DNA from: Iphione sp. A-MEVVRFRX5
Lineage: Eukaryota
Assembly: GCA_976226885.1 (NCBI GenBank)
Contig: OZ320316.1
Span: 60,512,001 to 60,576,000 of the forward strand
DNA: 64,000 bases
Direction of reading: 5' to 3'
Each line of letters opens with the position of its first letter. The stretch's first letter is position 1. Of the stretch, positions 8,061 to 60,900 are shown one piece after another. The notes under the pieces were generated by a model. The model was not told the origin of the DNA. It ran no database searches and worked only from the letters and a program-made list of their open reading frames with translations. The translations under genes and the position numbers were made by a program.

Positions 8061-8336
8061 AGATCACGACCAGACAGATTTACTGTAGTCCCAACCCAGA
8101 GTGGTCCACAACTCGTAAAAAGGCCGTGGGTGTATAGGATTCTATCCCCTATGCACAAAAAGATCCCAGAAACCTATTCGAAATAAGAGTAGGGGGCAAC
8201 CCCGGGTATTCTGGTCTCTCAATTCTCAACAATAGATGGTAGTATGCTACCCCAGGAGGATATGGAAGAGCTCTGTCATGTGATGGAGAATATCTAGTTC
8301 CTGGTTAAAGATACAATGAAATGAAATGAAATGAAA
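8061..8336 (+). mobile_element. 5'-truncated copy of tRNA-derived SINE (Nin-like core, (ATGAA)n tail)
   Basis: Body nearly identical to reverse complement of copies at 15080-15430 and 43683-44030; ends in ATGAA repeats; tRNA head missing. Confidence 0.85.
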
Positions 8337-15079: not shown

Positions 15080-15430
15080 TTCATTTCATTTCATTGTATC
15101 TTTTACCAGGGACTATATATTCACCTATCATATGACAGGGTTCTTCCATATCCTCTTTGTGTAGCATACTACCATGTATTATTGAAAATTGAGAGACCAG
15201 AATACCCGGGGTTGTCCCTTAGTCTTATTTCAAAAAGCTTTCTGGGATTTTTGTTTACATAGGGGACAGAATCCTATACACCCGCAGCTTTTTTTACAAG
15301 TTGTGGACCACTCTGGATTGGAACTACAGTAAATCTGTCTGTTCTTGATCAAGAGTCCCAGGTCCAGAATTGAACCTGTGACCTCTCAGTCAGTGGACCA
15401 GTGCTCTACCACTGAGCTAACACCCCACCC
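15080..15430 (-). mobile_element. Full-length tRNA-derived SINE with Nin-like central domain
   Basis: Head with A-box TAGCTCAGTGG and B-box-like GGTTCAATTCT, a body shared with the other copies, (ATGAA)n tail; core of the family (GCACAAAAAGATCCCAG...TTCGAAATAAGAGTAGGGGGCAACCCCGGGTATTCTGG in the 8061 copy) resembles the Nin/MESC SINE domain from memory. Confidence 0.85.
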
Positions 15431-15994
15431 AATGTAACTTATGCAAATTTGCCCCCCCCCCCTCAAAAAAAAACCAAGTGAAATTCATGCAAATTTGTCC
15501 GAAGAAATGGCAGAATACTGTGCAACTCACGTGAATTCAGCAAAAATGGGAAATTCAAGTGAATTCAGCCAAAAGACAGCAAAACTCACCGTTTTTATTA
15601 TACATATGGTCTTAAGTAGCCACATATCTTTTACAATGGTTGTATATTTGTAAATGCCGGTGTGGGAGATGGCTTTTTGATTCAGTACCAGAACTCGGCC
15701 AACTGATGCTTCTGTTGGCACAAAAAACTTATATAGCTGTACTGAGTTACCCCCTAACGTATATAAGTATGCACTATCCAGTGCGGAACCTATCACACAG
15801 GCAACATCATATAGCTTGTGGCAGTAATAGGGAGTCTATTTCTTTCTCCTCATGAATCATTTCTGGATGATTTTCATTATACATATGGAATTTAGTAGAC
15901 ACCCATCTTATACAATGGTTGTAAATTTACATGACAATCATTTCAGGCAGTCGCCGACTGGGCTGCTTCTCTAAGTAGAGAAGCCGCCTTCTAA

Positions 15995-23117: not shown

Positions 23118-23595
23118 CCAGGAGGAGTATTCGAGAGTGGTCGAGGGCATCAACGGCGACTTCTTTGATGGTCTCTCACCCTGGAGGAGTATCCCGGGAG
23201 TGGTCGAGGGCATCAACGGCGACCTCTCTGAAGTTCCTCACACCTTGGAGGGGTTGACCGGCAGTGGTCGAGGGCGTCAACGGCGACCTCTCTGAAGTTC
23301 CTCGCACCTTGGAGGGGTTGGCCGGCAGTGGTCGGGGGCATCAACGGCGACCTCTCTGAAGTTCCTCACACCTTGGAGGGGTTGGCCGGCAGTGGTCGAG
23401 GGCGTCAATGGCAACTTCTTTGATGGTCTCTCATCCTGGAGGAGTATCCCGGAAGTGGTCGAGGGCGTCAACAGCAAAGTCTCTGAAGTTCCTCGCACCT
23501 TGGAGGGGTTGGCCGGCAGTGGTCGAGGGTGTGAACGGCGACGTCTCTGAAGTTCCTCACACCATGGAGGGGTTGGCCGGCAGTGGTCGAGGGCG
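23118..23595. repeat. 63/64-bp tandem array (~7.5 units, two subtypes) in the Tigger 5' subterminal region
   Basis: GACCTCTCTGAAG recurs at 23221, 23285, 23349 (64-bp period); variant units begin GACTTCTTTGATGG (23158, ~23413). Confidence 0.9.
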
Positions 23596-23702
23596 GTCCC
23601 CTCCCTCTATCATACATAAGGAGGTCCAGACAGCACCAGAAATCACTCTTCTCCTGGATTCCCGTGAAGACACACCTCCAGACCACTCCAGACCACTCCA
23701 AG

Positions 23703-25238
23703 ATGCCCAGAAACGAACTGTCCCTTGGTGACAAGGTGAAGCTCCTCAAGGTCTCCACTGGAAGAAGCCAGAGGAGCCTTGCTGAAGAGTTCAAGATAGG
23801 GAAGACCCAAGTCCAATGCATCCTCAAGAGAAAGAGGGAAATCATGGAGCAGTATGAGAAATCACCAGACCCCTCAGTCAAGAGGCACCGCTACTCCACT
23901 GACCTCTCTGACCTGGATGAAGCCTGCTACAAGTGGTTCTGCAGGATGAGGTCACTGAACACCCCCATCTCAGGGCCTGCCATCCAGAAGAAGGTCCTGA
24001 CCCTGAGCAAGGAACTCAACCTGCCAGACTTCAAGGCCTCAGTGGGGTGGCTGCAACGCTTCAAGATCAGGCACTCCATTGGGGCCTTGAAGGTGTGTGG
24101 GGAGAGTGGTGGTGTTTCTGAGGTGGCAGTGGAGGATTGGCTCCAGCAACTCCCTGAGAAGCTCAGGGGATATGCCCCCAGGGACATCTACAATATGGAT
24201 GAGACCGGGCTCTTCCATAGGATAATGCCAGACAAGACCCTTGCCCAGAAAGGATCATCAGCCAGTGGATTCAAGAAATCCAAAGAAAGGATCACTCTCT
24301 CTCTGTGTTGCAACATGGAGGGAGAGTTTGAAAAGACCCTGGTGATAGGGAAGGCCCAGAAGCCCCGGTGCTCCAGATATGTGGACATGTCTGCACTCCC
24401 TGTCACTTGGAAGGCAAACTCCAGGGCCTGGATGACATCCTACATATTCCAGGAGTGGGTGCACAAATTCAACCAGAAGATGAAAAGGCAAGGGAGAAAG
24501 GTTCTCCTCCTCCTGGACAATGCCCCCTCACATCCACATGATATGAGGCTCAGCAATGTGGAGATGGTGTTCCTCCCTCCACATGCTACCTCAAAGCTCC
24601 AGCCACTGGATCAGGGCATCATCCAGAACCTGAAATCACACTACAAGAGCAAGCTCCTCAGTTACTTCATCCAGAAGGCTGACTCCACTGAGGGGCCCAT
24701 AGACCTTCAGTCCCTGATGAAGTCTGTGGATCTTCACCGGGTGGTCTACTGGGTGAGGGACTCACTCCAGCAGGTGAAACCAGACACAGTCAGGAAATGC
24801 TTCCTCAAAGCTGGAGTGAAGATTCCTGATGAGCCCAGTCCAGTGGAGGAGGAGGAGGAGGAGGAGGAAGAAGATGAAGAAGCAGAGTTGGTGAGGAAAG
24901 CACAGAGAGTCCTCCCTGTGGTAGATCCATGCCTACCAGATGATTACTGTGGCATGGATGCAGGTCTCCCAGCCCACAATCAGGATGTGGACTCAGACCT
25001 GCTGCCAAAGAAGGATCATGAGGAAGAGGAAGAAGAAGAAGAAGAAGACACATCACCACCTCCAATCACCCATGCAAAGGCCATGGACATGATGGAGCAG
25101 CTGAGACATCATTTTCTCCATCATGGTGCCAACACCCTCCTGGAGGCCCTATTGACCACCATGAACTCTTTTGACAAGCATGTACAACAATCCAGGAAGA
25201 AACAAAGCACTATTGACTCTTTTTTTAAACCACAGTGA
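23703..25238 (+). CDS. pogo/Tigger transposase (511 aa; HTH/CENP-B-like N-terminus, DD30D catalytic domain)
   Basis: MPRNELSLGDKVKLL...(HTH), 'WFCRMRSLNTPISGPAIQKK...FKASVGWLQRFKIRH' (CENP-B-type HTH), catalytic NMDETGL / LLDNAPSH / QPLDQGII with 30 residues between the last two Asp, C-terminal PIP-box-like QSTIDSFF. Confidence 0.95.
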   Translation: MPRNELSLGDKVKLLKVSTGRSQRSLAEEFKIGKTQVQCILKRKREIMEQYEKSPDPSVKRHRYSTDLSDLDEACYKWFCRMRSLNTPISGPAIQKKVLTLSKELNLPDFKASVGWLQRFKIRHSIGALKVCGESGGVSEVAVEDWLQQLPEKLRGYAPRDIYNMDETGLFHRIMPDKTLAQKGSSASGFKKSKERITLSLCCNMEGEFEKTLVIGKAQKPRCSRYVDMSALPVTWKANSRAWMTSYIFQEWVHKFNQKMKRQGRKVLLLLDNAPSHPHDMRLSNVEMVFLPPHATSKLQPLDQGIIQNLKSHYKSKLLSYFIQKADSTEGPIDLQSLMKSVDLHRVVYWVRDSLQQVKPDTVRKCFLKAGVKIPDEPSPVEEEEEEEEEDEEAELVRKAQRVLPVVDPCLPDDYCGMDAGLPAHNQDVDSDLLPKKDHEEEEEEEEEDTSPPPITHAKAMDMMEQLRHHFLHHGANTLLEALLTTMNSFDKHVQQSRKKQSTIDSFFKPQ

Positions 25239-25926: not shown

Positions 25927-26353
25927 TATAGTTTCTACTTGGGTTCAATAAAGAACTGACAACTCTGAGTCCTGATTCAAAACTGTCTTTATTCAGGTTC
26001 CCTCTCATATTTATATCTTTTCTCCAATCAAGGCACTAGCCAATCATCTGTCAGTATCAGAGTAAGAGAATACATTGTTACCTTCTTTAACAGTCCTTTC
26101 AACTAACCTACCAATCAGGAGAGGGCAAAGTATCACTTTTGGGCTGTGGGACCACAGCCGAGTGCTGCCGATCCAATCACAAGAGAGCTTTGAGACTCCA
26201 GGGTAGTTTGTTTTAAATCCAGGGGTGGCTGTGGTACCACAGTGACCCTTAGTGCATGTGCACCGAGTCCAGTACTCCTGCACTTACAGGGCGTGCGCCC
26301 GTACCTCCACCTGTGGCACCACAGCTCGAGGCCGGCTCCTGCATACCACTACA
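25927..26353 (-). repeat. 3' LTR (427 bp)
   Basis: Matches 35863-36338 except ~6 transitions and a 49-bp deletion; one terminus mutated (TA instead of TG on the + strand); three CTGTGGnnCCACAG palindromes, CCAAT boxes, minus-strand TATAAA and AATAAA. Confidence 0.97.
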
Positions 26354-26366
26354 CTCTCCCCTCTTT
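26354..26366 (-). promoter_or_regulatory. Polypurine tract (PPT)
   Basis: Minus strand AAAGAGGGGAGAG immediately 5' of the TGTAG start of the 3' LTR. Confidence 0.9.
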
Positions 26367-26603
26367 AAATTACACCCACCTCTGAGAGATGGGGCGAAGT
26401 ATTACACCCTAGAAGATCAATCTAGGAACAGCAATTCTAACTCAATCTCCCGACACTATAGCCACTAGGTAGCTTCCTTAATTTTAGCACCAATGAAATT
26501 TCTCTCGCCGTCACTACTTAACACCTGCTAAAGTTTTACAATGCGTCTAATCCCAAAAGTATCTGAGTGTCCCTGAGCATGCAGTCTTATAAGCCTGAAA
26601 TAC

Positions 26604-26785
26604 GGCTTACGGCCGTGGTAGTTCAGTAACACAGTCATATCAAATGAACTAAGGCTTACGGCCGTGATAGTTCAGTGCAACAGTCATATCAGATGTGGAG
26701 GTATGTAGTCCTCTGAATGTGAAGTAAGGCTTACGGCTGTGGCAGTTCAGTAAAACAGTCATATCAAGTATGGGGGCTTAAGGCC
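26604..26785. repeat. Three and a half spaced copies of a 39-nt unit in the Gypsy 3' untranslated region
   Basis: GGCTTACGGC(C/T)GTG(G/A)(T/C)AGTTCAGT...ACAGTCATATCA at 26604, 26653, 26728; partial at 26775. Confidence 0.85.
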
Positions 26786-27053
26786 GCAAAAGTCCAACCA
26801 ACCAATCACATAAAAACACTATCATACTTTGAATTCAACAACGGAGAAGCCCGTGTTGGGCGAAACTTGACCTCTACGTAAACTCTGAATCTGGCCTCAC
26901 TCTCTTGGAGGAAAGTTTGATCACCGGGATGATATCAGTCTCACGTGGAGTTTGAGGCCCGAGCAACGACACCAACTCAACAAAAAAAACATTCTTTACC
27001 CGCTCGGGCCCCTACTCACCACCCTGTGGAGGTCGGCTGTTCTACTCCTCCGT

Positions 27054-28502
27054 TCACATCACGTCAGTGTTGGTGCGACGCTGCTGAGAGGGGCGGGCCT
27101 CCAGGAGGTCCCACACAGTGGGGTCCTCCGCTCGTTGTTGGACCCGTGCCGCCTGTGCCTCCCGCTCCCAGGTGTCGAAGGCCTCGCGCCTCGAGGCCGC
27201 CGTCGCCGCGTAGGCCGGATGCGGGTCTTCGAGGAGGTTGGTCGCTGCTTCGATCGATCGGTTGTGCCAGCGGGTGACACGTTCGCAGTCGCCCCACTCG
27301 AGCCGGTCAGGGATCCGCATCCCTTCCAGCGCGAGGACCGACCGCCTGACCAGGGGGTCGATGAGGTGTTGCGGCGATGCCTCTGACTCCGCCAGGGCCA
27401 GAACCCACGCCAAGGAGGAACTGGCGATGAAGCGCGAGGTTGGGCTCATCTCCATCCAGCGGGGAGGGGGCCATTCCAGCCGCAGGGGAAGGCGTACCAT
27501 AGTGGGAACCATGACGGCTCGCCGTACCGCCGGGTAGGGTGGCACTCGGCCGTCCAGAATCTCCCGGACTAGACGGGACAGTGGGCCGAGCATGGGCGTG
27601 GTGAGTTCCCGTTCTGCCAGTCGTTGAAGGTGTCCTGGCGGGAGGGCTGCCTCCCGGGGCCGATCGCTTGATGGACCTCGAGAGGGTCCAGAGGCCTCCC
27701 AAGCCGTCAGGGTGTCGAGGAGGGCGGCCAGACTCCAGTCAGGGGTCAGGAGGGATGGCCCCCCCCTCGCAGTAGACTGGCGACTGACGTGGGCGTCCCT
27801 GGAGTGGTGCTGCTGCTTCATCGTCCACCGCTGCCGGCTCTGGTTGACCTCCCCGGGCCTCCGGTGACGGGGGATACACCCCGGCCCCACGCATAGGGCA
27901 CTTGTGGTGCATCCCGGAGATACCCCCGCCCAGCAGGAGCTGGAGGCATGGGCGGAGTGCGGTCGCTCCCTACGCTGCCCTCCCCAGAGTCGGAGGGGGA
28001 AGCGGGACGTCCAACGGCGGCAGCGGCCGGTGAGGTGCGCCAGCGGGCTCGGCCAGAAGCATGGGACGGCTGGGACTCCGGCGGGGGTGTGGACTCCATT
28101 GCCGATGAAGAAGATGGTCCGAGAGGCCCGGGTGGAGGCCTGGTTGCCGGTGTCCGAGGTGCACCGTGCCCAGGCAGGAGAGAAGACGGTTGCCGCCCCC
28201 AGACGACGCGCCGCTCGGGGAGGCTCGGCCGAGGCTCCAGGATCTCGTCTACTTCCGCCGGACCCATGAAGGCGCCGAGAGTGGCGGGTGCCCGGCTCGC
28301 CTAGGACGCTGCGACAGAAGAGGCAGTCCATCTGTCGGTGTCGACGGCCCCCATGCTGCTCCTTCTGATGACACTCCAAGGACTCCCCCGCCCAATACAC
28401 CCGGTGGGGTGTGCAGAGCTCACACCAAGCTGTACCAGGGGGCAGGGGTTCTCCCTCCTCCACCTGGGGTGCCGGGGGACGTGCCACTTTCTGCCGGGGC
28501 AT
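27054..28502 (-). CDS. Gypsy accessory ORF: two atypical C2H2 zinc fingers, Pro/Ser-rich linker, helical C-terminal domain (probably frameshifted in this copy)
   Basis: ATG at 28502 right after a pyrimidine tract + CAG acceptor; CELC-x14-H-x4-H and CLFC-x10-H-x4-H; alternative frame 28267-27818 looks like the true linker; C-terminal 'LEWPPPRWMEMSPTSRFIASSSLAWVLALAE...' block; no signal peptide or TM. Confidence 0.65.
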   Translation of the reverse strand: MPRQKVARPPAPQVEEGEPLPPGTAWCELCTPHRVYWAGESLECHQKEQHGGRRHRQMDCLFCRSVLGEPGTRHSRRLHGSGGSRRDPGASAEPPRAARRLGAATVFSPAWARCTSDTGNQASTRASRTIFFIGNGVHTPAGVPAVPCFWPSPLAHLTGRCRRWTSRFPLRLWGGQRRERPHSAHASSSCWAGVSPGCTTSALCVGPGCIPRHRRPGEVNQSRQRWTMKQQHHSRDAHVSRQSTARGGPSLLTPDWSLAALLDTLTAWEASGPSRGPSSDRPREAALPPGHLQRLAERELTTPMLGPLSRLVREILDGRVPPYPAVRRAVMVPTMVRLPLRLEWPPPRWMEMSPTSRFIASSSLAWVLALAESEASPQHLIDPLVRRSVLALEGMRIPDRLEWGDCERVTRWHNRSIEAATNLLEDPHPAYAATAASRREAFDTWEREAQAARVQQRAEDPTVWDLLEARPSQQRRTNTDVM

Positions 28503-29039
28503 GCTGCTTGCCACAGAGAAAGACGGCCAGCCAGGGTGGTTGTGGAACCACAGGCTTGTTGACAGTACAGGTTAGGTCAAGACGTGGGGCCACAGACTAC
28601 AACACACAGAGATGAACAGTCAGCGGCAGACAATCACTGTGGTACCACGGACAACAAGCTGACTGCACTTGGGGTGGTCACTCAGCCGCCCTTACCTGTC
28701 GTCGGAGATGGAGGTGCGAGGTGCGGCGAGGCCACAGCGCGGTGATGGCGACTGCCGCTCCTCGCCCAGTCACCCGATCCTTCTGCAGCGTCTGCCGGAA
28801 ACCGTGGTCTGTGGTTCCACGCTCACGATCAGCTTCCTGCTTCTCAACGCCCCGTCGGATGTGTCCACGCATAAAGACTTATTTTTGGCACTGTCCCCCG
28901 GCGTCCCCGCTGTTCTTCTCAGCCTCTTCTCTCCCTCACGTGGCCAGCTGTGGTGCCATGGGCCGCCATTGATCACGTCTCGCGAGATCACGGGTTCTCT
29001 CGCGCCCCGTGAGATCCCGCATCTCGCGTCCGTATCTCA

Positions 29040-29445
29040 TCTGTGGGCCCACAGCGAAACTGCTTACTCTACGACTGCTGAAGATTCATTCTTTTTGTAC
29101 TATAGGGGACTGGTAGGGATAGGACAAAAACTGTGCTACACCACTCTATTTCCCTTCCTTCGGCTGTGGCACCACAGGCACTTTCGCTGCGTTCTCCCTC
29201 TAGAGGGCGACACCTCCTCCCCGCCTGTGGTTCCACAGCCCATTCACCTGATACGTTGTATCGGCTATTTCCCCTGATTCCACCAATCACTCGTTACGTT
29301 GGATTTCTGTGGCACCACAGTACGAGTGGTTACCCTCCCAGCCAATCGCTCGAAAGCCAATGATATCTGTGGCACCACATACATGATCTTCGCTGCCCGC
29401 CGTAGCCAATCATCTTGGCCCACTGCGCCCCCCCCAATATAAATG
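29040..29445. promoter_or_regulatory. Putative bidirectional internal promoter of the Gypsy accessory region
   Basis: CTGTGGnnCCACA(G/T) palindromes at 29041, 29164, 29225, 29307, 29367; CCAAT at 29283, 29342, 29357, 29406, 29434; TATAAA at 29438-29443; flanked by divergently oriented spliced ORFs. Confidence 0.6.
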
Positions 29446-29677
29446 AGATGGGCTACGGCCAGCCTGCTTCATCTGGACTCTTGCTGCACCCCACCAGGCT
29501 TCTCTATCCTTCCAGCTACCCCTTCCAGCTACCCCAGCTCAGGTACCCGTCTTATGTAGGAATGGCAACTGTTTAACATCTTTGAACTAGCTGAACCAGA
29601 GACAAATCATAGTTTTTTTTTTGTTTTGTTTTGTTTTTTTTTAACGGTTTTCTCCCTTTTTCAGCCTAAACCCAGCC

Positions 29678-30547
29678 ATGACCAATCAAGGGACCGCGTT
29701 TGGGCACCTTCCTGCTGCGGTTCTTCGGCCTTATCGCCTGTGAGTGTTTGGATAACTCTTCCTCTACTTCCACTCGTTCTAAGTGTTATCCAACATCGCC
29801 CCTTCCTGAAGTTTAGTGTCAGCCAGATCCATCTTCATTTTTCCTGCCTATTTTCTCTTCCATAGGCTCCGCTATCGACCCACCCTGCCCGGGTCAACCC
29901 CCTCCGGCGTGAACATTCACACAGAAGGGCCGGTGGTACGAGTTTTCGGCACCCATGAGATCATAGATGCCCCCTTCATCTTGCCTGTTCCGGGCCGTCT
30001 GATCTTCCTTGGGCCGCTTCACGTGATTGACCTGGTGGTACGCCCTGTCGCCCCTCCTGGCTCGGCGCGACCCCCGCCAACGATGCCCGCCCCATCAGAC
30101 TGGGCCGCTTGCTACACCACCCCGTTGCTTCCACCGGCCTCTCCCTCCTCCAGTGCTTCCGGGTATGGCACCGACAGCCCTTCATCCCTTACCAGCAGTC
30201 GTCTGGACCCCTGGGGGTCCCACCAGGACCTTTCCGCGATGGGCGCCTCACCACCCCCGGCAGACGGATCGGGTCGCTCCTCTCCAAGCCCACGGCCGTC
30301 ACCCACCCCGTCGGGAGAAGACTCTGTACCGCCTCCGTCTCCGGCCGTCACGAGGTCAGAATGCACTACCCCCGAGACAGGCGATGACATCTCCTGCAGC
30401 TCCTCACACCTGGGGACTTCCCCTCCGGGAGGCCATGTGCCCTTCGCGGCGATTTCGACTCCCGCCCTGGCAGCCTGGTATCGTCAGTTTCGTTGGGGCG
30501 ACGCTCCCTTCTGCCCTATCCTGGTATCTTCCTCCGATGAGGAATAG
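29678..30547 (+). CDS. Antisense spliced accessory gene of the Gypsy element (CDS join 29678-29739, 29866-30547; ~247 aa, Pro/Ser-rich)
   Basis: Non-coding exon 1 ~29470-29542 (CAG|GTAC); acceptor TTTTCTCCCTTTTTCAG|29665; gccATGa at 29678; donor CT|GTGAGT 29739; acceptor TTTTCTCTTCCATAG|29866 in matching phase 2; stop 30547; AATAAA 30614-30619. Confidence 0.75.
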
Positions 30548-30613
30548 GACCTTAATCAGTAACTACACTCCCCATGCTAAGTACTCTGTAGCTGCGTGGC
30601 TGACATACCTTGA

Positions 30614-30619
30614 AATAAA
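30614..30619 (+). terminator. Polyadenylation signal of the antisense accessory gene
   Basis: AATAAA ~67 nt after the TAG at 30547. Confidence 0.6.
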
Positions 30620-31024
30620 TTTCAACTAACTAATTTGTCCCCCGTGTTCGTTCTATGTTCTGTTCGCTCTCAGACTTAATTATAAACACCCTTCCCGTCG
30701 TCCCGCCGCAGCGACCAGAGGACATAACCCGACCAGGTTCTAATTCCTTCGCCCTGGTCCGAGTTGGCTCCACCCCTGACAGTGTGCCGGCTTGCCCAGA
30801 GGACAAAGCCTGGCCAGACCTCCGTCTCCTTCTGGCCCAGGCCGGCTCCACTGTCAGTCCCACCTCCGTGGTCTGTCGACCTCTCAGCTACCACCAGCCT
30901 ACACTGCAAGCGGCCGTAGTGCTGCCCTCCCTAACGGGAGCTTCCTTCGCACACTATGGTTCGCCCTCCGACAACATCTCCGGAGCTGCCTAGGTCCCCC
31001 CCCGGAGGACGTGCCCCCACTCCT

Positions 31025-31355
31025 CCCCCTAGAGCTTTTGGGTACCGCACCCGGGGATGTCCAGCCTCCCCCTCTGGAACTTTCGGGTCCCGCACCCGAG
31101 GATGTCCAGCCTCCCCCCCTGGAGCTTTTGGGTCCCACACCCGAGGATGTCCAGCCTCCTCCCTCTGGAGCTTTTGGGTCCCACACCCGAGGATGTCCAG
31201 CCTCCCCCCTCTGGAGCTTTTGGGTCCCACACCCGAGGATGTCCAGCCTCCCCCTCTGGAGCTTTTGGGTCCCGCACCCGAGGATGTCCAGCCTCCCCCT
31301 CTGGAGCTATTGGGTCCCGCACCCGGGGATGTCCAGCCTCCCCTCCCTGGAGCTC
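31025..31355. repeat. ~45-bp minisatellite (~7 copies) in the tail of pol
   Basis: GGAGCTTTTGGGTCCC(A/G)CACCCGAGGATGTCCAGCCTCCCC units; give 15-aa repeats in several frames. Confidence 0.95.
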
Positions 31356-31365
31356 TCTGCTCTCC

Positions 31366-34300
31366 CTAGTCCGACCTCCACTGGAAGATTTTTATCCTTT
31401 TGTTACGAGCTCCCTTCCTTATTCGCGCGCCGCCGCCATGACTTGATCCAACGAGGTATCTACCCTCGATACAGTCGTAGGCGATTCCGATGCACCACCT
31501 TGGGGCGAGCCGGGCTGCCCGTTGGACCACCAATCGCTCTGGGTCCAGTACCTTAGTAACGAGCCATGGACCCGTCCAGGGCAAGTATACTTTAGGGCTC
31601 TTCCCTCTGGGTGGTTGAGCTTCGTGTAACCACGCCACGTTCCCTTCCTGTAGGGGTTCCCCTTTTGCCCGGCGATCGTATCCTCTAGCCTGCATCCGTG
31701 CAGCCTTTAACAAGTGTTCCCGGACCGTCTGGTAAGCCCTCTTCAGCTGACGTTGAAGGCGCTGCACCCACTCTGGCATAGTCACCTGTTCCTTCCCCTC
31801 CCACTCACTAAGAGGGAGGCCATCCATCGCATGCGCTGGCAGGACCACCTCCCGACCGAACATCAGGAAGTTGGGTGTGAAGCCAGTACTGGCTTGGGGG
31901 GAAGCTCGGTAGGCCATCATAAGCAGTGGGAGTGCTTCATCCCAGTCGTCGCCGGTATCGTAGCAGTGGGCTTTAATCATTTTCCCTAGCGTGCGGAAGC
32001 TCCTTTCGATAAATCCATCCCCCTGGGGGTGTCTAGGGGTCGTCTTGGTTCGCTGGATTTGCAGGAACTCACACAGAGCAGAAACAACTTCACTGCAGAA
32101 GTTGGTTCCTCTGTCGCTGTGGAGCTCCATGAAACATCCATAACGAGAGACCACCTCCTCCACTAGTACTTGTGCTATCCGGGTTGCCTTCTGATCAGGC
32201 AGTGGGAAGGCCTCTAGCCATTTAGTAAAGTGGTCCCCCACCATTAAGATATAACAATTGCCCCGCTTGGTATGGGGGAACGGACCGGCCACGTCCATGG
32301 ACCATCTCTCCATTGGCTCCCCGGACATATAAGTGCGCAGCGCCGTCTGTGGACGGAAGGGATTTACTGTGAGGAGAGCACAGTGACATTTCGCACAGAA
32401 GGTTTGTATAACTTGTTGCATCCCAGGCCAGTAATACGCCAAGGACACCAGGAAAGTGGTGCGGTCTACCCCTAAGTGGCTACCCATTCGGCCTTGGTGG
32501 ATTTCCTCGATAGCCTTGACTCGTCGCTGTGCAGGGAGTACCAGCTGCAGGCGGGTTCTTGGGGCTTCGAGCTCATGCCACTGCCGGTATAGCAGCCCCT
32601 CTTGTACCACCAAACGGTCCCACTGCTGCCATAGTTTCTTGGCCGCCCTCGACAAGGGGGAAATATCCTCCCACTCTGGCCTACCAGATGTATCCTCCTT
32701 CAGCATCAGGATAGGTCCAATATCTGGGTCGTCCAGCTGCGCACCCCGAAGGGCCCGATCTGTCGCCCCCTGAGTGCGGCCTCGGGTGACGACTCGTACC
32801 TCCACCCCATGCTCCTGCTTACACTGTTTACAAGGCATTCGGGATAGAGCATCTGCGTTACCGTGCAGGCGCCCTGGTGGGTGCTGAAGGTGGAGGTGAT
32901 ATTGACCGATTCTCTCCAGCCATCGAGCTAACTGCCCCTCAGGGTCCCGGATACGGCTCAACCAGCTAACCGCCCCATTGTCCGTCTGCACCGTGATCTC
33001 CTGCCCGTATATAAAAAAATGAAAATGTTTCAAAGCAGCTACCACCACCAGCAACTCCCTCCGCATCACACAATACCTCCGTTCCGGTGGCGTGAGACTG
33101 CGGCTAAAGTACGCGAGGACTACTTCCTGGCCTTCCTGCTCTTGGGAAAGCACAGCTCCTAGCCCCACATTGCTGGCATCTGTGTCCAAATAAAAACGTC
33201 CCTTAGGCATCGGGTAGCCCAGCACGGGGCTGGCCTGTAATGCCCGTTTCAGAGATTCGAAGGCCTCCTCTTCTTCGGGGCCCCAATAAAACCGGGTCCG
33301 GGGGCTAGTCAGCCGGTGTAGGGGTGCTGCTAGATCGGCGAAATGAGCCACCAGACGGCGGTAGTAGGAGCAAAGTCCGAGAAAGGCTCTTACGTTGGTA
33401 GTGGAGGTCAGCCTTGGCCATTCCTGGATACACTGCACCTTCCCGGGATCCGCTGAAATTCCCCGATAGGACACCCGATGCCCCAGGAAAGGAACCTCCT
33501 CAAGGAACAAACGGCATTTAGCCGGTTTCAATTTTAAGCCAGCAGCCTCAATTCGAGAGAGCACCTGATCCAACCGGGCTAGCGTCTCCCCAAAATCCCG
33601 CCCAAATACCAATACGTCGTCCAGATAGACTAGGCATTGCTCCCAGGTCAGTCCCCTGAGCACCGTGTCCATTAAACACTCAAACGTAGCAGGAGCGTTG
33701 ACCAACCCAAACGGCATCACTGTAAACTCATACAACCCAGAGGATGTGGTGAAGGCCGTCTTTTCCTGGTCCCGCGGATCCATCTTAACCTGCCAATAGC
33801 CCGATGCTAAGTCTAGCGAACAAAAGTACCGAGCTCCCGCCAGTGCGCTTAACGAATCATCCACTCGGGGTAGGGGATACGCGTCAACCTTCGTCTGTTG
33901 GTTTAGTCTCCGGTAATCGACACAGAAACGAGTAGTTCCATCCTTTTTGCGTACCATGACTACGGGACTTGCCCAGGGGCTCTGGCTCACGACAATGACC
34001 CCGGCCTCTGCCATTTCCCTTACTAGTTGCTGCTCTTCCTGTCTTCTTGACAGGGGCAGGCGCCGAGGTTGCTGTTTAATGGGACCTGATTCCCCCATGC
34101 AAATACGATGTTGCACCACGTCCGTACAACCCAAGTCACCTTTGTGTTGTGCAAAGGCCCCCCTGTGCCGTTCTAGCACCACCCGCAGCTCTCCTTGTTC
34201 CCCTTCAGTGAGATGAACTGTCTTAGTGGCCATCAACTCATCTATCAAGGTCCCTGTCCCCACCTTTGTGGTAGCCACTTTCAGGGGGTGGTTCTGGAGG

Positions 34301-34986
34301 CAGTCAGTAACCTCCTCCCTCTGCGCTGGCGAGCCAAGGGCCAGAGACGTCCCCTGTTGGATCAACAGTTCCCTCTCCCCAGTGTTCCACACGGGCAGCA
34401 CCTGGCTTACAACGCAACGCACTCCTACCACCCCTTGTAATAACTGATCCTCCTCTAAGCCCTCTACCAAGAATGGACCCTCTCCACTGGGAGACACTGG
34501 GATCCCCACCCCTTCCCCAGGGGGAACCGTAATATCGGAGGCTGCCCTCAGTACCTTAACCCCCCTGGTCTGTTCCTTCCCCCTAGGGGTCCCTCCAAAC
34601 AAAACCTCACCCTGTGCCAAGTCAATGACAATGCCATGCTGGGTCAAGAAATCTGCCCCCAATATCCCATCCCCTTCTATCTCTGCTAACAGGAAGTGGT
34701 GTTTGAATTCCTTTCCAGCAATCCCTACCTGCACCTCCTCTCTCCCTACCGTTGGCAGGATATGGCCCCCTACCCCCATAACCTTTACAGCAGCCCTCTT
34801 AACAACTGGGCCAGGGACCACACAGGGATTCATAATGGAAACTTCAGCACCCGTATCAATAAGCAGTAGGAGTGTCTTCTCACCACAGCTTACCTTGAGA
34901 TGTGGTCCCTGGCCGTATTCCATTATCACCTCCCGGTGGACAAATGCAGTCGGTGTCCCCTGGCCTACTGAGCCGACTGCTGTGTG
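31366..34986 (-). CDS. pol: Gypsy pol polyprotein (protease, RT, RNase H, integrase); C-terminus disrupted
   Basis: LIDTGAEVS (AP), YLDD (RT), DASNVGLGAVL...NADALSR (RH), H-H-C-C region, MDVAGPF / LHSDRGTNF / GFIERSFRTL (IN DDE), WTGPW (GPY/F). A 1-nt shift near 31520 restores 'RPKVVHRNRLRLYRG', followed by an in-frame TAG at 31460-31462. Frame is -1 to gag. Confidence 0.95.
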   Translation of the reverse strand, partial: HTAVGSVGQGTPTAFVHREVIMEYGQGPHLKVSCGEKTLLLLIDTGAEVSIMNPCVVPGPVVKRAAVKVMGVGGHILPTVGREEVQVGIAGKEFKHHFLLAEIEGDGILGADFLTQHGIVIDLAQGEVLFGGTPRGKEQTRGVKVLRAASDITVPPGEGVGIPVSPSGEGPFLVEGLEEDQLLQGVVGVRCVVSQVLPVWNTGERELLIQQGTSLALGSPAQREEVTDCLQNHPLKVATTKVGTGTLIDELMATKTVHLTEGEQGELRVVLERHRGAFAQHKGDLGCTDVVQHRICMGESGPIKQQPRRLPLSRRQEEQQLVREMAEAGVIVVSQSPWASPVVMVRKKDGTTRFCVDYRRLNQQTKVDAYPLPRVDDSLSALAGARYFCSLDLASGYWQVKMDPRDQEKTAFTTSSGLYEFTVMPFGLVNAPATFECLMDTVLRGLTWEQCLVYLDDVLVFGRDFGETLARLDQVLSRIEAAGLKLKPAKCRLFLEEVPFLGHRVSYRGISADPGKVQCIQEWPRLTSTTNVRAFLGLCSYYRRLVAHFADLAAPLHRLTSPRTRFYWGPEEEEAFESLKRALQASPVLGYPMPKGRFYLDTDASNVGLGAVLSQEQEGQEVVLAYFSRSLTPPERRYCVMRRELLVVVAALKHFHFFIYGQEITVQTDNGAVSWLSRIRDPEGQLARWLERIGQYHLHLQHPPGRLHGNADALSRMPCKQCKQEHGVEVRVVTRGRTQGATDRALRGAQLDDPDIGPILMLKEDTSGRPEWEDISPLSRAAKKLWQQWDRLVVQEGLLYRQWHELEAPRTRLQLVLPAQRRVKAIEEIHQGRMGSHLGVDRTTFLVSLAYYWPGMQQVIQTFCAKCHCALLTVNPFRPQTALRTYMSGEPMERWSMDVAGPFPHTKRGNCYILMVGDHFTKWLEAFPLPDQKATRIAQVLVEEVVSRYGCFMELHSDRGTNFCSEVVSALCEFLQIQRTKTTPRHPQGDGFIERSFRTLGKMIKAHCYDTGDDWDEALPLLMMAYRASPQASTGFTPNFLMFGREVVLPAHAMDGLPLSEWEGKEQVTMPEWVQRLQRQLKRAYQTVREHLLKAARMQARGYDRRAKGEPLQEGNVAWLHEAQPPRGKSPKVYLPWTGPWLVTKVLDPERLVVQRAARLAPRWCIGIAYDCIEGRYLVGSSHGGGARIRKGARNKRIKIFQWRSD

Positions 34987-34992
34987 TTTTCC
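34946..34992 (-). promoter_or_regulatory. Putative -1 programmed ribosomal frameshift signal (gag-pol)
   Basis: G GAA AAC in gag frame (34992-34986), 5-nt spacer, then perfect 8-bp stem GCAGTCGG/CCGACTGC; pol frame is open from just upstream of this site and is -1 to gag. Confidence 0.7.
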
Positions 34993-35831
34993 GACGGTTT
35001 AGGCCCTGCAGTGTTCGATGCTTGCTGTGGGGCTTTCGGGCAATCTCTCTTCCAGTGACCCGGTTGCTTGCAGATGAAACACAAATTGTCCCTGGGCCGT
35101 GACCTCTGAGGTCGCATTTCCTCCCGTAGTTTGGCAAACTCCTGCATTAGGACTTCCACCATGTCCTTGGGTGCTGGGCTGTTAGCATCCTTGTTGCCAC
35201 TTGCTTGTATGGCGTTCACCCTCCTAGCCGGGAACCGTTCTTTGATCTCCACTACCTGTAGTGCAGCCTCCATGGTCTTGCATTGTTCTTCTAGACATTT
35301 CAAATGCAGGTCATCAGGGAGCGCCCGTTGAAAGGCCGACACTGCCGCTAACTCTCGCGTCTCCGCACTCACATCGGGGTACGCGGTGCGTACAAGTCGT
35401 CGGACTTTATCAGCAAACCCCTTGGCATCCTCCCCTTTCTGTCTGCGGATCGTGGACAGGCCTTGCATAGCCGTCACTGGATTACGTCGACGTCCAAACC
35501 GCTTTTCCAAGGCGGCTACCCTGGGCTCAAAGTCAGCCTTGTCCTCCGACGGAAGGTCTCCAAAGTACATTCGGGCGGTGCCAGTCAACGACAGAGCCAG
35601 TGCTGAAGCTCTTGTGTTCAGACTCCACTTGCATGCATCTGCCCATTCGACAAACTGGACAATCCAACTGTCCCAGTCGACTACGTTGCCATCGAATCGT
35701 TCAGGTTTCATGGCATTGGTGCGCAGTGGCTCCTCTGGGGCTAGCACGTAAGGCTCAGCTTCTTCTTCATCGTCCGCATCCGGTACGCGTAGCTGTACCT
35801 CGTCGTCAACTGCCACAAACTTGGTAGCCAT
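34965..35831 (-). CDS. gag: Gypsy gag (288 aa) with CCHC zinc knuckle
   Basis: 'KPERFDG...WDSWIVQFVEWADACKW...LALSLTGTA' capsid-like region and CFICKQPGHWKRDC knuckle; ATG 13 nt after PBS. Confidence 0.95.
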   Translation of the reverse strand: MATKFVAVDDEVQLRVPDADDEEEAEPYVLAPEEPLRTNAMKPERFDGNVVDWDSWIVQFVEWADACKWSLNTRASALALSLTGTARMYFGDLPSEDKADFEPRVAALEKRFGRRRNPVTAMQGLSTIRRQKGEDAKGFADKVRRLVRTAYPDVSAETRELAAVSAFQRALPDDLHLKCLEEQCKTMEAALQVVEIKERFPARRVNAIQASGNKDANSPAPKDMVEVLMQEFAKLREEMRPQRSRPRDNLCFICKQPGHWKRDCPKAPQQASNTAGPKPSENTQQSAQ

Positions 35832-35843
35832 GATGTACAGTGG

Positions 35844-35861
35844 ATCCCACTTCTGACACCA
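35844..35861 (-). promoter_or_regulatory. Primer binding site, tRNA-Leu type
   Basis: Minus strand TGGTGTCAGAAGTGGGAT 1 nt from the 5' LTR end; this PBS sequence is the common tRNA-Leu-complementary type. Confidence 0.9.
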
Positions 35862-35862
35862 A

Positions 35863-36338
35863 TGTAGTTTCTACTTGGGTTCAATAAAGAACTGACAACT
35901 CTGAGTCCTGATTCAAAACTGTCTTTATTCAGGTTCCCTCTCATATTTATATCTTTTCTCCAATCAAGGCACTAGCCAATCATCTGTCAGTATCAGAGTA
36001 AGAGAATACATTGTTACCTTCTTTAACAGTCCTTTCAACTAACCTACCAATCAGGAGAGGGCAAAGTATCACTTTTGGGCTGTGGGACCACAGCCAAGTG
36101 CTGCCGATCCAATCACAAGAGAGCTTTGAGACTCCAGGGTAGTTTGTTTTAAATCCAGGGGTGGCTGTGGTACCACAGCGACCCTTAGTGCATGTGTACC
36201 GAGTCCAGTACTCCTGCACTTACTTCGTATAGCCAGTGCACCCCGACTGTGGCACCACACACTTCTGCGCACAGGGCGTGTGCCTGTACCTCCACCTGTG
36301 GCACCACAGCTCGAGGCCGGCTCCTGCATACCACTACA
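35863..36338 (-). repeat. 5' LTR (476 bp)
   Basis: TG...CA ends; four CTGTGGnnCCACA palindromes; minus-strand TATAAA 35946-35951 and AATAAA 35924-35929. Confidence 0.97.
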
Positions 36339-43682: not shown

Positions 43683-44030
43683 TTTCATTTCATTTCATTG
43701 TATCTTTTACCAGGAATATATTCACCTATCATATGATAGGGATCTTCCATATCCTCCTGGGGTAGCATACTACCATCTATTATTGAGAATTGAGAGACCA
43801 GAATACCCGGGGTTGCCCCCTACTCTTATTTCGAATAGGTTTCTGGGGTCTTTTTGTGCATAGGGGATAGAATCCTATACACCCACGGCCTTTTTATGAG
43901 TTGTGGACCACTCTGGGTTGGGGCTACATTAAATTTGTCTGGTCGTAATCAAGAGTCCCAGGCCTGGAATTGAACCTGCGACCTCTCAGTCAGTGGACCA
44001 GTGCTCTACCACTGAGCTAACTCCCCACCC
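43683..44030 (-). mobile_element. Full-length tRNA-derived SINE (same family as 15080-15430)
   Basis: A-box TAGCTCAGTGG, B-box GGTTCAATTCC, shared body, (ATGAA)n tail. Confidence 0.88.
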
Positions 44031-44254
44031 CTTGTCTTGTTATAAAGGTGGCATATACTTCTTATATGTACACAATATGTTTAGTGCATGGCAGCCATCT
44101 TTAATTCTGTTTGTCCTCATTTCAGTGTGTCATATATCACATACAGCAACTCGGTGCTAAGTTCTTAAGTTGTGCCACCTCCTCTTCATGGTTGAGTGGT
44201 CCCTGATAGTCATAGGTAAGGTGGGTTAAGTGATAGACAACAAGTAACACCCAC

Positions 44255-57989: not shown

Positions 57990-60900
57990 CAACATAAGGC
58001 AGATTTACGTACCACCACCTTACATCTTGTTAAAGCAGTACAAGATGTCATATACCCCTCATATTGAGCCTGTCCAGTTTGACCAAATCTTGATTCTTTC
58101 TATACAATGAAGCCCTGGTAAAGTCAACAACCTTTCCCAAGACTGAAGCCACACCGTAAATGACATTGACCTGTTGACCCAAGACAGACTCAAGACAAGA
58201 AGTTACTTTAGTCACCCTAGACTCAGTGGGAGTGACCACCAAGTCAACAGAACTGATGGTATAACCTAGGAAAACAACAGACTGGGCTGGCTCTAAAGAA
58301 AACTTATCAAAATTAATGAAAAACCCTATAAACTGTAACAGCTTGACAGTCTTTAAGACAAACAAGGAACACTCCCATGCATCTCTACCAATTATAATGA
58401 TATCATTGAAGTAAGAAGCCACTACCACCCCCTCCTCCCTATGACAAGCCAATGGTGTAGTCATAATCTTCGTAAAGATTCTATGTGCAGATGACAAAAC
58501 GAATGGAAACACATCATACTGATTCACCTTGCCCTGCCAAGGGAATGCTAAATATTTCCTATGTAAAGACCAAACTGGCAGTATGATATGATGCATTCTT
58601 TAGCTCCACAGATGCCGTAAAACAACCCTCATATAAAAGAGGGTGTTTATTCTCCAAGGTTTACATTTTAAAGTGCTTGTACTCAATGGGCTTGTTTAAC
58701 TTAGACAAGTCCAATATCATCCAATAGTAACCATTGGGTTAAGGCCTCAGGAAGATATTGGACAAGAAAGCATCAGAGGAAACTGCTTCCAAAAGAGAAA
58801 TAGTTTTAATCTTAAGGTTAGACAACTCCTTCTATATAAATTGTGATTCAGCCTTTGAGAAAGGAATTGGCCTAGGCCTTACCTCTTGGCAGGGCAAGGT
58901 CAAAAGGTCAAGCTTATAACCTGACACTGCTTCTTGAACTTCCCTACCTCAAATGAGCCCAGGCCATTGCCTTCCACAGGAAAACAAGTCCCTGGCTAAG
59001 AAAGTGATTTTCTCCCCTAAGCCTGCACCTGCTGCTGTGCCTGCTGCACTGCCTTGTGGAGTTGCTGCACAGGAGTAAGGAGGTTGTCCAACAGAAACTT
59101 AGGAGAAGGAGGACAATCTTCTGAAACCAGCCTCTTAAATATGGCAGGGAAACTGAACCTCGTCCCTGTGCACTTTAACCAAAGTCTGAAAAGTGGACCT
59201 CCCCTCCAGAATGAGAGAGGACCAAAAGCTGTTGATCTTTTGCTACCCATAGACTTCCTCCCACATGGCACATAACAGGCCTGACTGCCCTACATGAAGC
59301 AATTAAACCTGTGCATGAGGTCCTGACTGACCTTCTGAAGGACACGTTTACATTCCTGCCCTCCTAGGATAGATTCATAAAAAGAACCTCCTTGAGGCGA
59401 CAGACCTGATGGCCATCAATATTTGAAGGGTGCTAATGACACATCTGTGTGTCCCCCAGAAAGTCTGCCTTGAACAGCTGAAGCAGTTTCTTGGCCAGAG
59501 GGATCACTGCCTCAAATAAAAGAGGCCCAACTTCCACATCGGTATCCATCCTCTCAAACAACACCAGAGAACTAGGCTCTGGCTCCTGCAATGCTACTGA
59601 GGACACAGAACCTGGGTCATTAACCTGTGGGTTCTCTTTTTCCTCCTCGTCCTTCCACTCCAACATTATGTTGAAGCCATGGGCCATATTCTGGCCAAAA
59701 GATGTTAACCATCTTTAACGTCCACAGAAAAAGAAAGCATTAGCTGCTGCTGTGCTCACATAAGTTGCTCCTGCGAGCTTGTCACCTGTTCTTGTGATGA
59801 CCAAACTTGCAAAGGTGCCTGAAAAATTGGCACTATTCCCCTAAAAATCATATATGCATGTGTATGTCTTTTTGCAAAGGGACCCCACAGAAACAAAATG
59901 TTGCTTCCTTGAGGAAAAGGTTAGGAAAAAAGGAACACAACAAAAATTTTCAACTTAACTTGGCTGAAAAAGATTTGTCAATGATTTTTTACCTCAGGGG
60001 TCAAAGATGGAATGTTGGGTGACTTTAAAAGTTTCTGAATGCCTTCATGTCAAATCAGACAAAGCTGATTGAGCTCGGCCAACAACTTAAGTCATACCTG
60101 CCAAACAATGTCATTAGCCCAACTTGAAACAATGTCAAACTTGAACTGGCATGGGTCAGAGATCAAAGTCATCGACCTCCACAATGATGGCCGAGCTAGG
60201 TCAACCACCAAAATTGTTGGCAAGGAATGGTTGAGTTTGGCTAAAAAAAGTCAAACCCAAGGATGCTTGAAGTTGTCCTGGCTGAGCTTCATTCACCAAT
60301 GCAGACCCCGACTGAGCTTGGGCCCTCCATGATAGTTGATGTTATCCTGTCTGAGCTTAATCAACCAACACATATTGACTGAGCTGGCGCTGCCAAGAGC
60401 GCTTGAAATTGGTCTGTCTAAGCTTGATCAAGGATGCTTCCTCCATGACCCCTGCTACAGACTTGATCACCCGAGCTGGAACAACCAAGGTTCTTATCAG
60501 CGTGATAGAGCATACCCCAAGCAGGGGGACACTTCCACAGCTGTTACTAACAATTGCATTCTGTCCTTGAAGTCAGATGTCAACAGACGAGGCTGACCTT
60601 GCTGGCTGTATGGACAACTGCATAACAATCAACCTCTCCAGTCTTTTCATACTAAGACTATCAACTGACTCATCATGTCTAGTTTCAGCATCCAAGGAGG
60701 CATTTAAATGTTTTGTGGATGTAGATAATGTGCGAGTCATTTTGGTATGCTTTGTTAAAGGAGTAAGGTTGACATGATGTGGATCATGCTTACTCTTTCC
60801 ACAATGAGTAGGGTCGACTGAATCATCCCAAGCACCCTCCACAAACAAGATTCATAAGATCAGAACAGAATAAACAAAGGGAGGGGTGATCCTGCAATGT
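57990..60900 (-). mobile_element. Decayed DIRS-1-like retroelement (gag and RT) in a PC intron
   Basis: RT remnant 58048-58596 'HRKYLAFPWQGK..Y...PF.LSSAHRIFTKIM...YFNDII...GFFINFDK..LEP.Q..FLG'; gag-like 'EVGPLLFEAV', 'FKRLVSEDCPPSPKFLLDNL' at 59000-59700; no YR seen. Confidence 0.8.

Follow-up and report, generated by a model that had tools for sequence, protein, structure and literature searches.

A two-finger accessory gene of Ty3/Gypsy retrotransposons accompanies a lineage-specific palindrome that it may bind

LTR retrotransposons are generally taken to rely on host transcription factors, and self-encoded transactivators mark the complex retroviruses. Some elements carry extra ORFs, and the plant Gypsy element Grande reportedly has one in antisense orientation between pol and the 3' LTR. 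Retand, also a plant Gypsy element, combines an antisense ORF at this position with tandem repeats and non-autonomous derivatives, and a regulatory role has been proposed (PMC11963269, in part). The ORF3 of bdelloid LTR retrotransposons is not an env and encodes GDSL esterase, DEDDy exonuclease, CC, or TM products (PMC5408684, in part). The functions of extra ORFs are described as mostly unknown in the available parts of two sources (PMC11963269 and PMC8220671). Element-encoded regulators are known elsewhere. Tas/Bel1 of the foamy viruses (Spumaretrovirinae) binds and activates response elements in both the LTR and an internal promoter (PMC517496, in part). VANC of the Arabidopsis VANDAL elements is an anti-silencing protein encoded by the TE, and its family-specific targets accumulate in noncoding tandem repeats (PMC5735166, in part). 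TnpA and transposase regulators are treated in a preprint whose available text contains neither "retrotransposon" nor "LTR" (bioRxiv 10.64898/2026.08.24.746577).

The window analyzed here, a 64-kb stretch of an Iphione sp. genome, contains a 10.4-kb LTR element on its minus strand (25927-36338), flanked on both sides by an ATAT target-site duplication (Table 1). Its two LTRs have 6 mismatches over 427 aligned bases and a 49-nt gap. A primer-binding site, which we take to be of the tRNA-Leu type, follows the 5' LTR, and the genes have the Ty3/Gypsy order, with gag followed by pol as PR-RT-RH-IN. These features, together with the LTRs and the target-site duplication, identify the element as a Ty3/Gypsy LTR retrotransposon (Metaviridae). 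The remainder is laid out as antisense ORF4, a palindrome cluster, sense ORF3, and the 3' LTR. Elsewhere the window holds a Tigger/pogo-type DDE transposase ORF of 567 aa (CENP-B_N, HTH, DDE_1; 23136-25238, plus strand) with a 64-nt tandem array ahead of it, another dispersed repeat (8062-8284, 15115-15435, and 43716-44035), and an RT remnant with a weak Pfam match (RVT_1, E 0.003; 58048-58599).

Table 1. Window coordinates of the element's parts, its two accessory genes, and their predicted signals
Feature	Position	Strand
5' LTR, 476 nt, four palindromes	35863..36338	-
5' LTR signals: TATA-like TATAAAT; AATAAA; TCAGT	35951; 35929; 35895	
Primer-binding site	35844..35861	-
gag with CCHC knuckle	34965..35831	-
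pol, PR-RT-RH-IN	31366..34998	-
45-nt tandem repeat array 3' of pol	30975..31399	.
AATAAA-type signal of ORF4	30614	
ORF4 main exon: conserved block of ~55 aa, Ser/Pro/Asp-rich middle, conserved C-terminal motif	29866..30547	+
Predicted ORF4 intron, GTGAGT donor, pyrimidine tract and YAG	29740..29865	+
Predicted first coding exon of ORF4, in phase with main exon	29678..29739	+
Candidate 5'-leader intron of ORF4, weaker donor, T-rich acceptor	29543..29664	+
TATA-like box, predicted ORF4 promoter	29438..29443	+
CTGTGG-NN-CCACAG cluster between ORF3 and ORF4, 7 sites if one mismatch is allowed in each arm	28540..29380	.
Candidate sense intron, 192 nt; donor conserved, acceptor not	28504..28695	-
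ORF3, accessory gene with two fingers; this copy broken	27054..28502	-
Zinc finger 1, C-x2-C-x14-H-x4-H	28353..28424	-
Zinc finger 2 remnant, cut by deletion	28287..28325	-
Conserved helical C-terminal domain of ORF3	27063..27653	-
3' LTR, 427 nt, three palindromes	25927..26353	-

In the preliminary description, ORF3 was an accessory gene on the sense strand, encoding a protein with two zinc fingers and not an env, with decay or an assembly error suggested for this copy. Sister copies and open relatives support a decayed accessory gene of this kind. A DNA search of the 1.18-Gb genome gave 13 sister copies of the window element. The start ATG at 28502, reading MPRQK, is present, as is the first finger, and the folded-looking C-terminal domain of about 200 aa was borne out. 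Read from 28502, the ORF has 482 aa rather than the 486 aa first given. The proposed second finger, CLFC-x10-H-x4-H, spans a deletion junction; the sisters have C-x2-C-x12-H-x4-H. Relative to the sisters, the long ORF is indeed off-frame in its middle part, and the frame of the Pro/Ser linker is 28300-27818, with a TGA at its end. Two compensating indels and a TGA had been invoked for this. The TGA stands, and the G run near 27766 does differ from the sisters, but in place of the supposed small indel at about 28270, about 160 nt are deleted near 28287. The gap is clean and measures 161 nt in the comparison with 10 of the 13 sisters; against one more it comes to 160 nt in two pieces, the other two not aligning cleanly. 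The alignment of family copies thus places the deletion, the altered G run, and the linker-frame stop (27818-27820). The conserved frame is fully open in one sister (538 aa), and we used this naturally open frame, unaltered, as the query. The other sisters are broken at various places, so the breaks in the window fit family decay. The window ORF3 is a decayed copy of a conserved gene. A donor-like GTGAGT lies about 35 nt past the ORF3 stop (about 27012-27020, minus strand).

The two ends of ORF3 each match at least 150 scored places in the genome (1037 and 4797 candidates). We took 40 loci for their differing open frames, a choice that favors openness. In every one of the 40, pol sequence lies upstream in the same orientation, and ORF3 is on the sense strand with a length of 463 to 665 aa. 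The protein plan is two C2H2 fingers, a variable linker, and a helical C domain. The eight Cys and His residues are invariant in 32 aligned rows, and the conservation on which the zinc-finger reading had been made to depend was thus found; both fingers are present in 40 of 41 proteins. The predicted model of residues 1 to 150 (pLDDT 82.7) has two beta-beta-alpha units followed by helices. A fold search with the finger model returned C2H2 proteins at weak scores (best Z 3.3, rmsd 3.4, 64 aligned), and a finger profile matched the tandem C2H2 proteins ZBTB17 (E 0.018), CTCF, and ADR1. Of 32 members, 10 matched Pfam zf-C2H2_4 (best E 2.6e-6). The top PDB match of the finger profile was vimentin (E 0.002), which we set aside because it aligns on the His tag. 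The ligand spacing and the predicted beta-beta-alpha fold suggest that the N-terminal part of ORF3 is a C2H2 pair. ORF3 is under purifying selection. The dN/dS values are 0.04 to 0.15 for the finger domain and 0.07 to 0.14 for the C domain (5 and 9 of 14 pairs, respectively, being estimable with unsaturated dS), and 0.18 to 0.51 for the linker.

An env or errantivirus-type fusion protein was considered and rejected. As had been noted for the window copy, neither a signal peptide nor a transmembrane anchor is found, here in any of the 40 open relatives. No 19-residue hydropathy window reaches 1.6 in any of these 40 frames, and the N-terminal maximum is 0.57. The C domain is modeled as helical, with a best pLDDT of 78.8 and values of 61 to 68 in the other four models. 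It had no match in Pfam, among PDB sequences, or in the fold search (best Z 4.9), which does not establish a new fold. The full ORF3 protein, its alignment, and the C-domain alignment gave nothing at E 0.01 against protein databases, and an Atlas search gave no usable match. A C-domain profile run against 1.84 billion representatives produced four weak matches (E 2.7e-5 to 7.2e-4). One of the four matching clusters, P0004 (P0007-P0012), consists of uncharacterized Mytilus proteins that have the C-domain core of ORF3 in common; among them, P0009 carries no finger and contains a long charged repeat. Mollusc relatives of this one domain, together with splice and promoter signals, point to an animal host. 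Searches of the literature gave no description of the element family; Repbase, GyDB, subscription journals, and supplements may name these elements.

A 192-nt intron ahead of ORF3 had also been proposed, and regulated alternative splicing or export of unspliced RNA had been deduced from it. The donor, CAG/GTAAGG at 28696/28695, is present and is kept in 13 of 14 copies. The window has the CAG ending at 28504, but just 3 of 14 copies keep this acceptor. All 14 copies do have an AG three bases upstream of it, and in 12 of 14 an in-frame ATG stands 12 nt upstream; this ATG would place both AGs within coding sequence. Because so few copies keep the acceptor and so many have the upstream ATG, the sense intron is unproven. 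The deduction about splicing and export loses its support with it, since an intron with that acceptor is unsupported. In the leaders of 18 lineages, we counted 4 pyrimidine-rich acceptors on the sense strand versus 37 on the antisense strand. A donor-like GT[AG]AGT lies within 450 nt of the ORF3 start in 12 of 20 lineages on the sense strand, versus 1 of 20 on the antisense strand, and some leader splicing or U1 binding ahead of ORF3 is possible. Ahead of ORF3, the sense strand of the lineages compared has no recurring TATA or Inr pattern. The ORF3 transcript may be either an LTR-driven spliced RNA or the product of a TATA-less start.

The well-supported introns are in the antisense gene ORF4, which the preliminary description had overlooked. 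A homologous antisense frame, head to head with ORF3, is found in 36 of the 40 loci and in the window. A pyrimidine-rich acceptor precedes the ORF4 frame, in the same phase, in all 21 lineage representatives; the distance from acceptor to conserved motif is 43 nt in 20 representatives and 55 nt in the window. Twelve lineages besides that of the window have a TATA box followed about 25 to 30 nt on by TCAGT (10 lineages), TCATT (1), or CCAGT (1). In these 12, the predicted promoter mostly precedes an ATG that opens a similar short peptide, together with donors. Of the 13 sisters in the window family, 12 retain the ORF4 ATG, donor, and acceptor, and the acceptor alternates between TAG and CAG. 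ORF4 is thus a conserved and apparently spliced antisense accessory gene. It is under purifying selection, with dN/dS of 0.10 to 0.41 in 9 of 13 pairs (three others are saturated, and one is nearly identical). Its product is mostly acidic and low in complexity and has no recognizable DNA-binding domain. We found no Pfam or PDB match for it (four frames against Pfam at E 0.1). Such an acidic, low-complexity product would fit a co-factor. One sister, L094:7826-8194, has a piece of pol inverted within the ORF4 leader.

The palindrome TGTGGNNCCACA occurs at 13 sites in the 64 kb, versus 0.19 expected, and all of them lie in the LTRs or between the two genes (28541-29379). Other lineages have other half-sites, all in a 6-2-6 arrangement: CTGTGG, TCGTGG, TCGTGT, TCGGGG, TGGCGG, and TTGGGT. 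The spacer is 2 nt at 341 sites, versus at most 9 for any other spacer. We compared 23 representatives with less than 80% identity. In 21 of them, the dominant motif upstream of ORF3 is that of the LTR/3' region, and shuffled pairing gave a mean of 4.4 and a maximum of 12 in 20,000, the motif list being derived mostly from these same loci. The mismatched representatives are L104, which has few upstream sites, and L111, whose group has the non-6-2-6 motif GGGCCCGA in 9 to 13 copies upstream and 0 to 3 copies downstream or in the LTR. Across 41 elements, no match between the upstream region and the LTR exceeds 25 nt. Therefore, the palindromes are not a copied block. The LTR arrays are tandem and regularly spaced, with up to 15 copies. 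In the internal region, the final palindrome lies 17 to 73 nt upstream of the antisense TATA box, and several sites lie past the candidate donor of ORF3 and less than 150 nt from its start. In the window family, several ATTGG (reverse CCAAT) boxes interleave with the palindromes at 29281-29443, a pattern that is not general in other lineages.

We propose that the ORF3 product binds, as a predicted dimer, the 6-2-6 palindrome of its lineage and activates its own family, and we give this explanation as a whole slightly better than an even chance. A C2H2 finger covers about 3 bp, and two fingers cover about six bases. Two fingers would thus read one 6-bp half-site, and a dimer would fit the 6-2-6 site. 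In this scenario, the ORF3 protein would bind its lineage's palindrome at U3 and in the internal divergent region, and its linker and C-terminal domain would recruit co-factors. For ORF4, the sites ahead of the TATA box would serve as upstream activating sequences; for genomic RNA, the U3 arrays would do so. The ORF3 protein would raise transcription of genomic RNA, of ORF4, and probably of ORF3, and a positive feedback loop would result. That ORF3 is the palindrome binder is, in our judgment, probable; that it binds and then activates or de-silences stands at about even. In proposing this, we infer binding, dimerization, the direction of the effect, and splicing.

Alternatively, ORF3 may bind the palindromes but repress or buffer transcription as a form of copy-number control, or it may only shield the element from chromatin silencing. 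The distribution of the palindromes would serve this reading equally, the sites close to the ORF3 start and past its candidate donor would fit negative autoregulation, and the C domain resembles no known activator. However, sites stand directly upstream of TATA boxes, and arrays that expand to 15 copies in the LTRs would be expected of sites that benefit the element. We consider repression or shielding unlikely.

It is somewhat more doubtful still that host transcription factors, differing by lineage, read the palindromes while ORF3 acts otherwise, for instance by binding RNA or chromatin. U3 commonly holds enhancer arrays for host factors, and arrays there would be normal. The TGTGGT within the window motif resembles what we take to be a Runx site, and the finger-2 helices are acidic or hydrophobic at some positions. 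However, the six half-sites drift stepwise within one fixed 6-2-6 geometry, unlike a switching among unrelated factors, and the motif tracks ORF3 where pol is the same. The RH-IN sequences of L110 and L141 are nearly identical to those of L111, L112, and L114, but ORF3 and the motifs are different; therefore, the accessory module travels apart from pol. Most of pol is missing from four loci (L115, L117, L118, and L132), which still have gag and protease as well as the palindromes and an open ORF3. They are non-autonomous derivatives that keep the putative regulator. Because the motif follows ORF3, and because pol-poor elements keep both, RT/IN in cis is not the reader.

A further candidate is the ORF4 product (or Gag) as the sequence-specific binder, with the ORF3 fingers making protein contacts. 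ORF4 is conserved and linked to the same module, and the distant clade described below shows neither an ORF4 match nor arrays. L103 and L125 have a nearly identical pol, a nearly identical ORF4, and a shared motif but divergent ORF3 proteins. Taken with the L110/L141 and L111/L112/L114 comparison, this suggests that the accessory module has been exchanged at different break points. Against ORF4 as the binder, L103 and L125 have finger-2 Q-S residues in common, and the ORF4 product is mostly low-complexity and acidic, with no recognizable DNA-binding domain; we rate this candidate a little lower again, as improbable. Finally, retroviral RNA dimers can start from short palindromes, but a role of these palindromes in RNA dimerization or packaging, unrelated to ORF3, is very improbable given their many imperfect copies, their varying spacer bases, and their location in U3 and an internal promoter-like region, not near the PBS.

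In the finger domain, position +2 of the finger-2 helix is the best of 126 columns at tracking motif class (AMI 0.64), which speaks for ORF3 as the binder. A linker column comes second (AMI 0.58). The six motif classes require six changes on the tree. Because ORF3 and its upstream region are physically linked to U3 of the 3' LTR and inherited with it, the co-variation of ORF3 and motif is largely descent. A simple finger-to-base code was sought and only partly found, and CTGTGG accompanies two unlike finger-2 helices, one in the window family and L104 and the other in the L123 group.

We fixed three predictions before examining 34 further loci, 20 from the near clade and 14 from a distant Gypsy clade that this genome also contains. 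Among the 20 near-clade loci, most of which are close kin of the first set (only four representatives are new at the 80% level), the finger-2 helix rule held in 18; one exception has residues outside the rule, and one has no upstream motif. ORF4 was in place in 17 of the 20. A 6-2-6 motif common to both regions was found in 15, the GGGCCCGA type in 3, and failure in 2. The 14 distant-clade loci (L143-L146, L150, L152, L153, L155, L156, and L158-L162) have a homologous two-finger ORF3, and pol is about 45 to 59% identical in 4 of the 12 examined. This clade showed no ORF4 match and no 6-2-6 arrays. By raw count, CCTCCGA occurs two to five times in both the upstream and the 3' regions of 11 of 12 distant-clade loci.

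Taken together, it is possible, at a little under even chances, that an animal retrotransposon clade evolved its own transcription factor and a circuit like that of complex retroviruses. Such a circuit would comprise dimeric two-finger proteins and palindromic operators that have diversified in step into orthogonal pairs, each lineage activating only itself through its LTR and a divergent internal promoter for a second, antisense regulator, with the module swapped between pol backbones. In these elements, the candidate target of an extra ORF is legible from the DNA, in at least six variants in one genome. Because that site can be read in the DNA, the function of such ORFs is directly testable. 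If the proposal is true, these elements offer a natural series in which to follow the joint evolution of a two-finger domain and its site. Two new protein families, the ORF3 C domain and ORF4, would be added as well.

The putative regulator can be set beside several known systems. ORF3 resembles the tandem C2H2 domains of ZBTB17, CTCF, ADR1, and Tramtrack in ligand spacing and predicted beta-beta-alpha fold. Unlike them, it has only two fingers, a long first loop, an appended helical part, and a 9-residue basic linker in place of the usual TGEKP. Like the bdelloid ORF3, it is a sense third ORF of an animal element and not an env; however, the bdelloid products are enzymes or membrane proteins, and "zinc finger" is absent from the available text of PMC5408684. 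With Retand, the element shares a long region between pol and the LTR, an antisense ORF, tandem repeats, and non-autonomous derivatives. Retand is a plant element with a TRP28 domain, a domain without a Pfam match here (four ORF4 frames gave none at E 0.1). The present element differs in having two divergent genes, and the available part of the Retand source describes no cognate binding site. Like the targets of VANC, the motifs here are lineage specific and lie in regularly spaced arrays. VANDALs, in contrast, are plant DNA transposons, VANC carries DUF1985/DUF287, which Pfam scans of 32 and 33 members did not find in the ORF3 family, and its motifs are not 6-2-6 palindromes. As in the Tas system, one motif occurs at both the LTR and an internal region, a likeness at the motif level. 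Pfam and PDB searches gave no Tas match for ORF3. Unlike the foamy viruses, this is an env-less Ty3/Gypsy element with a C2H2 pair, a lineage-variable palindrome, and a second, antisense gene, and its activation is proposed where that of Tas is described. By analogy, the element would work like foamy virus Tas or plant VANC, yet it is a member of neither.
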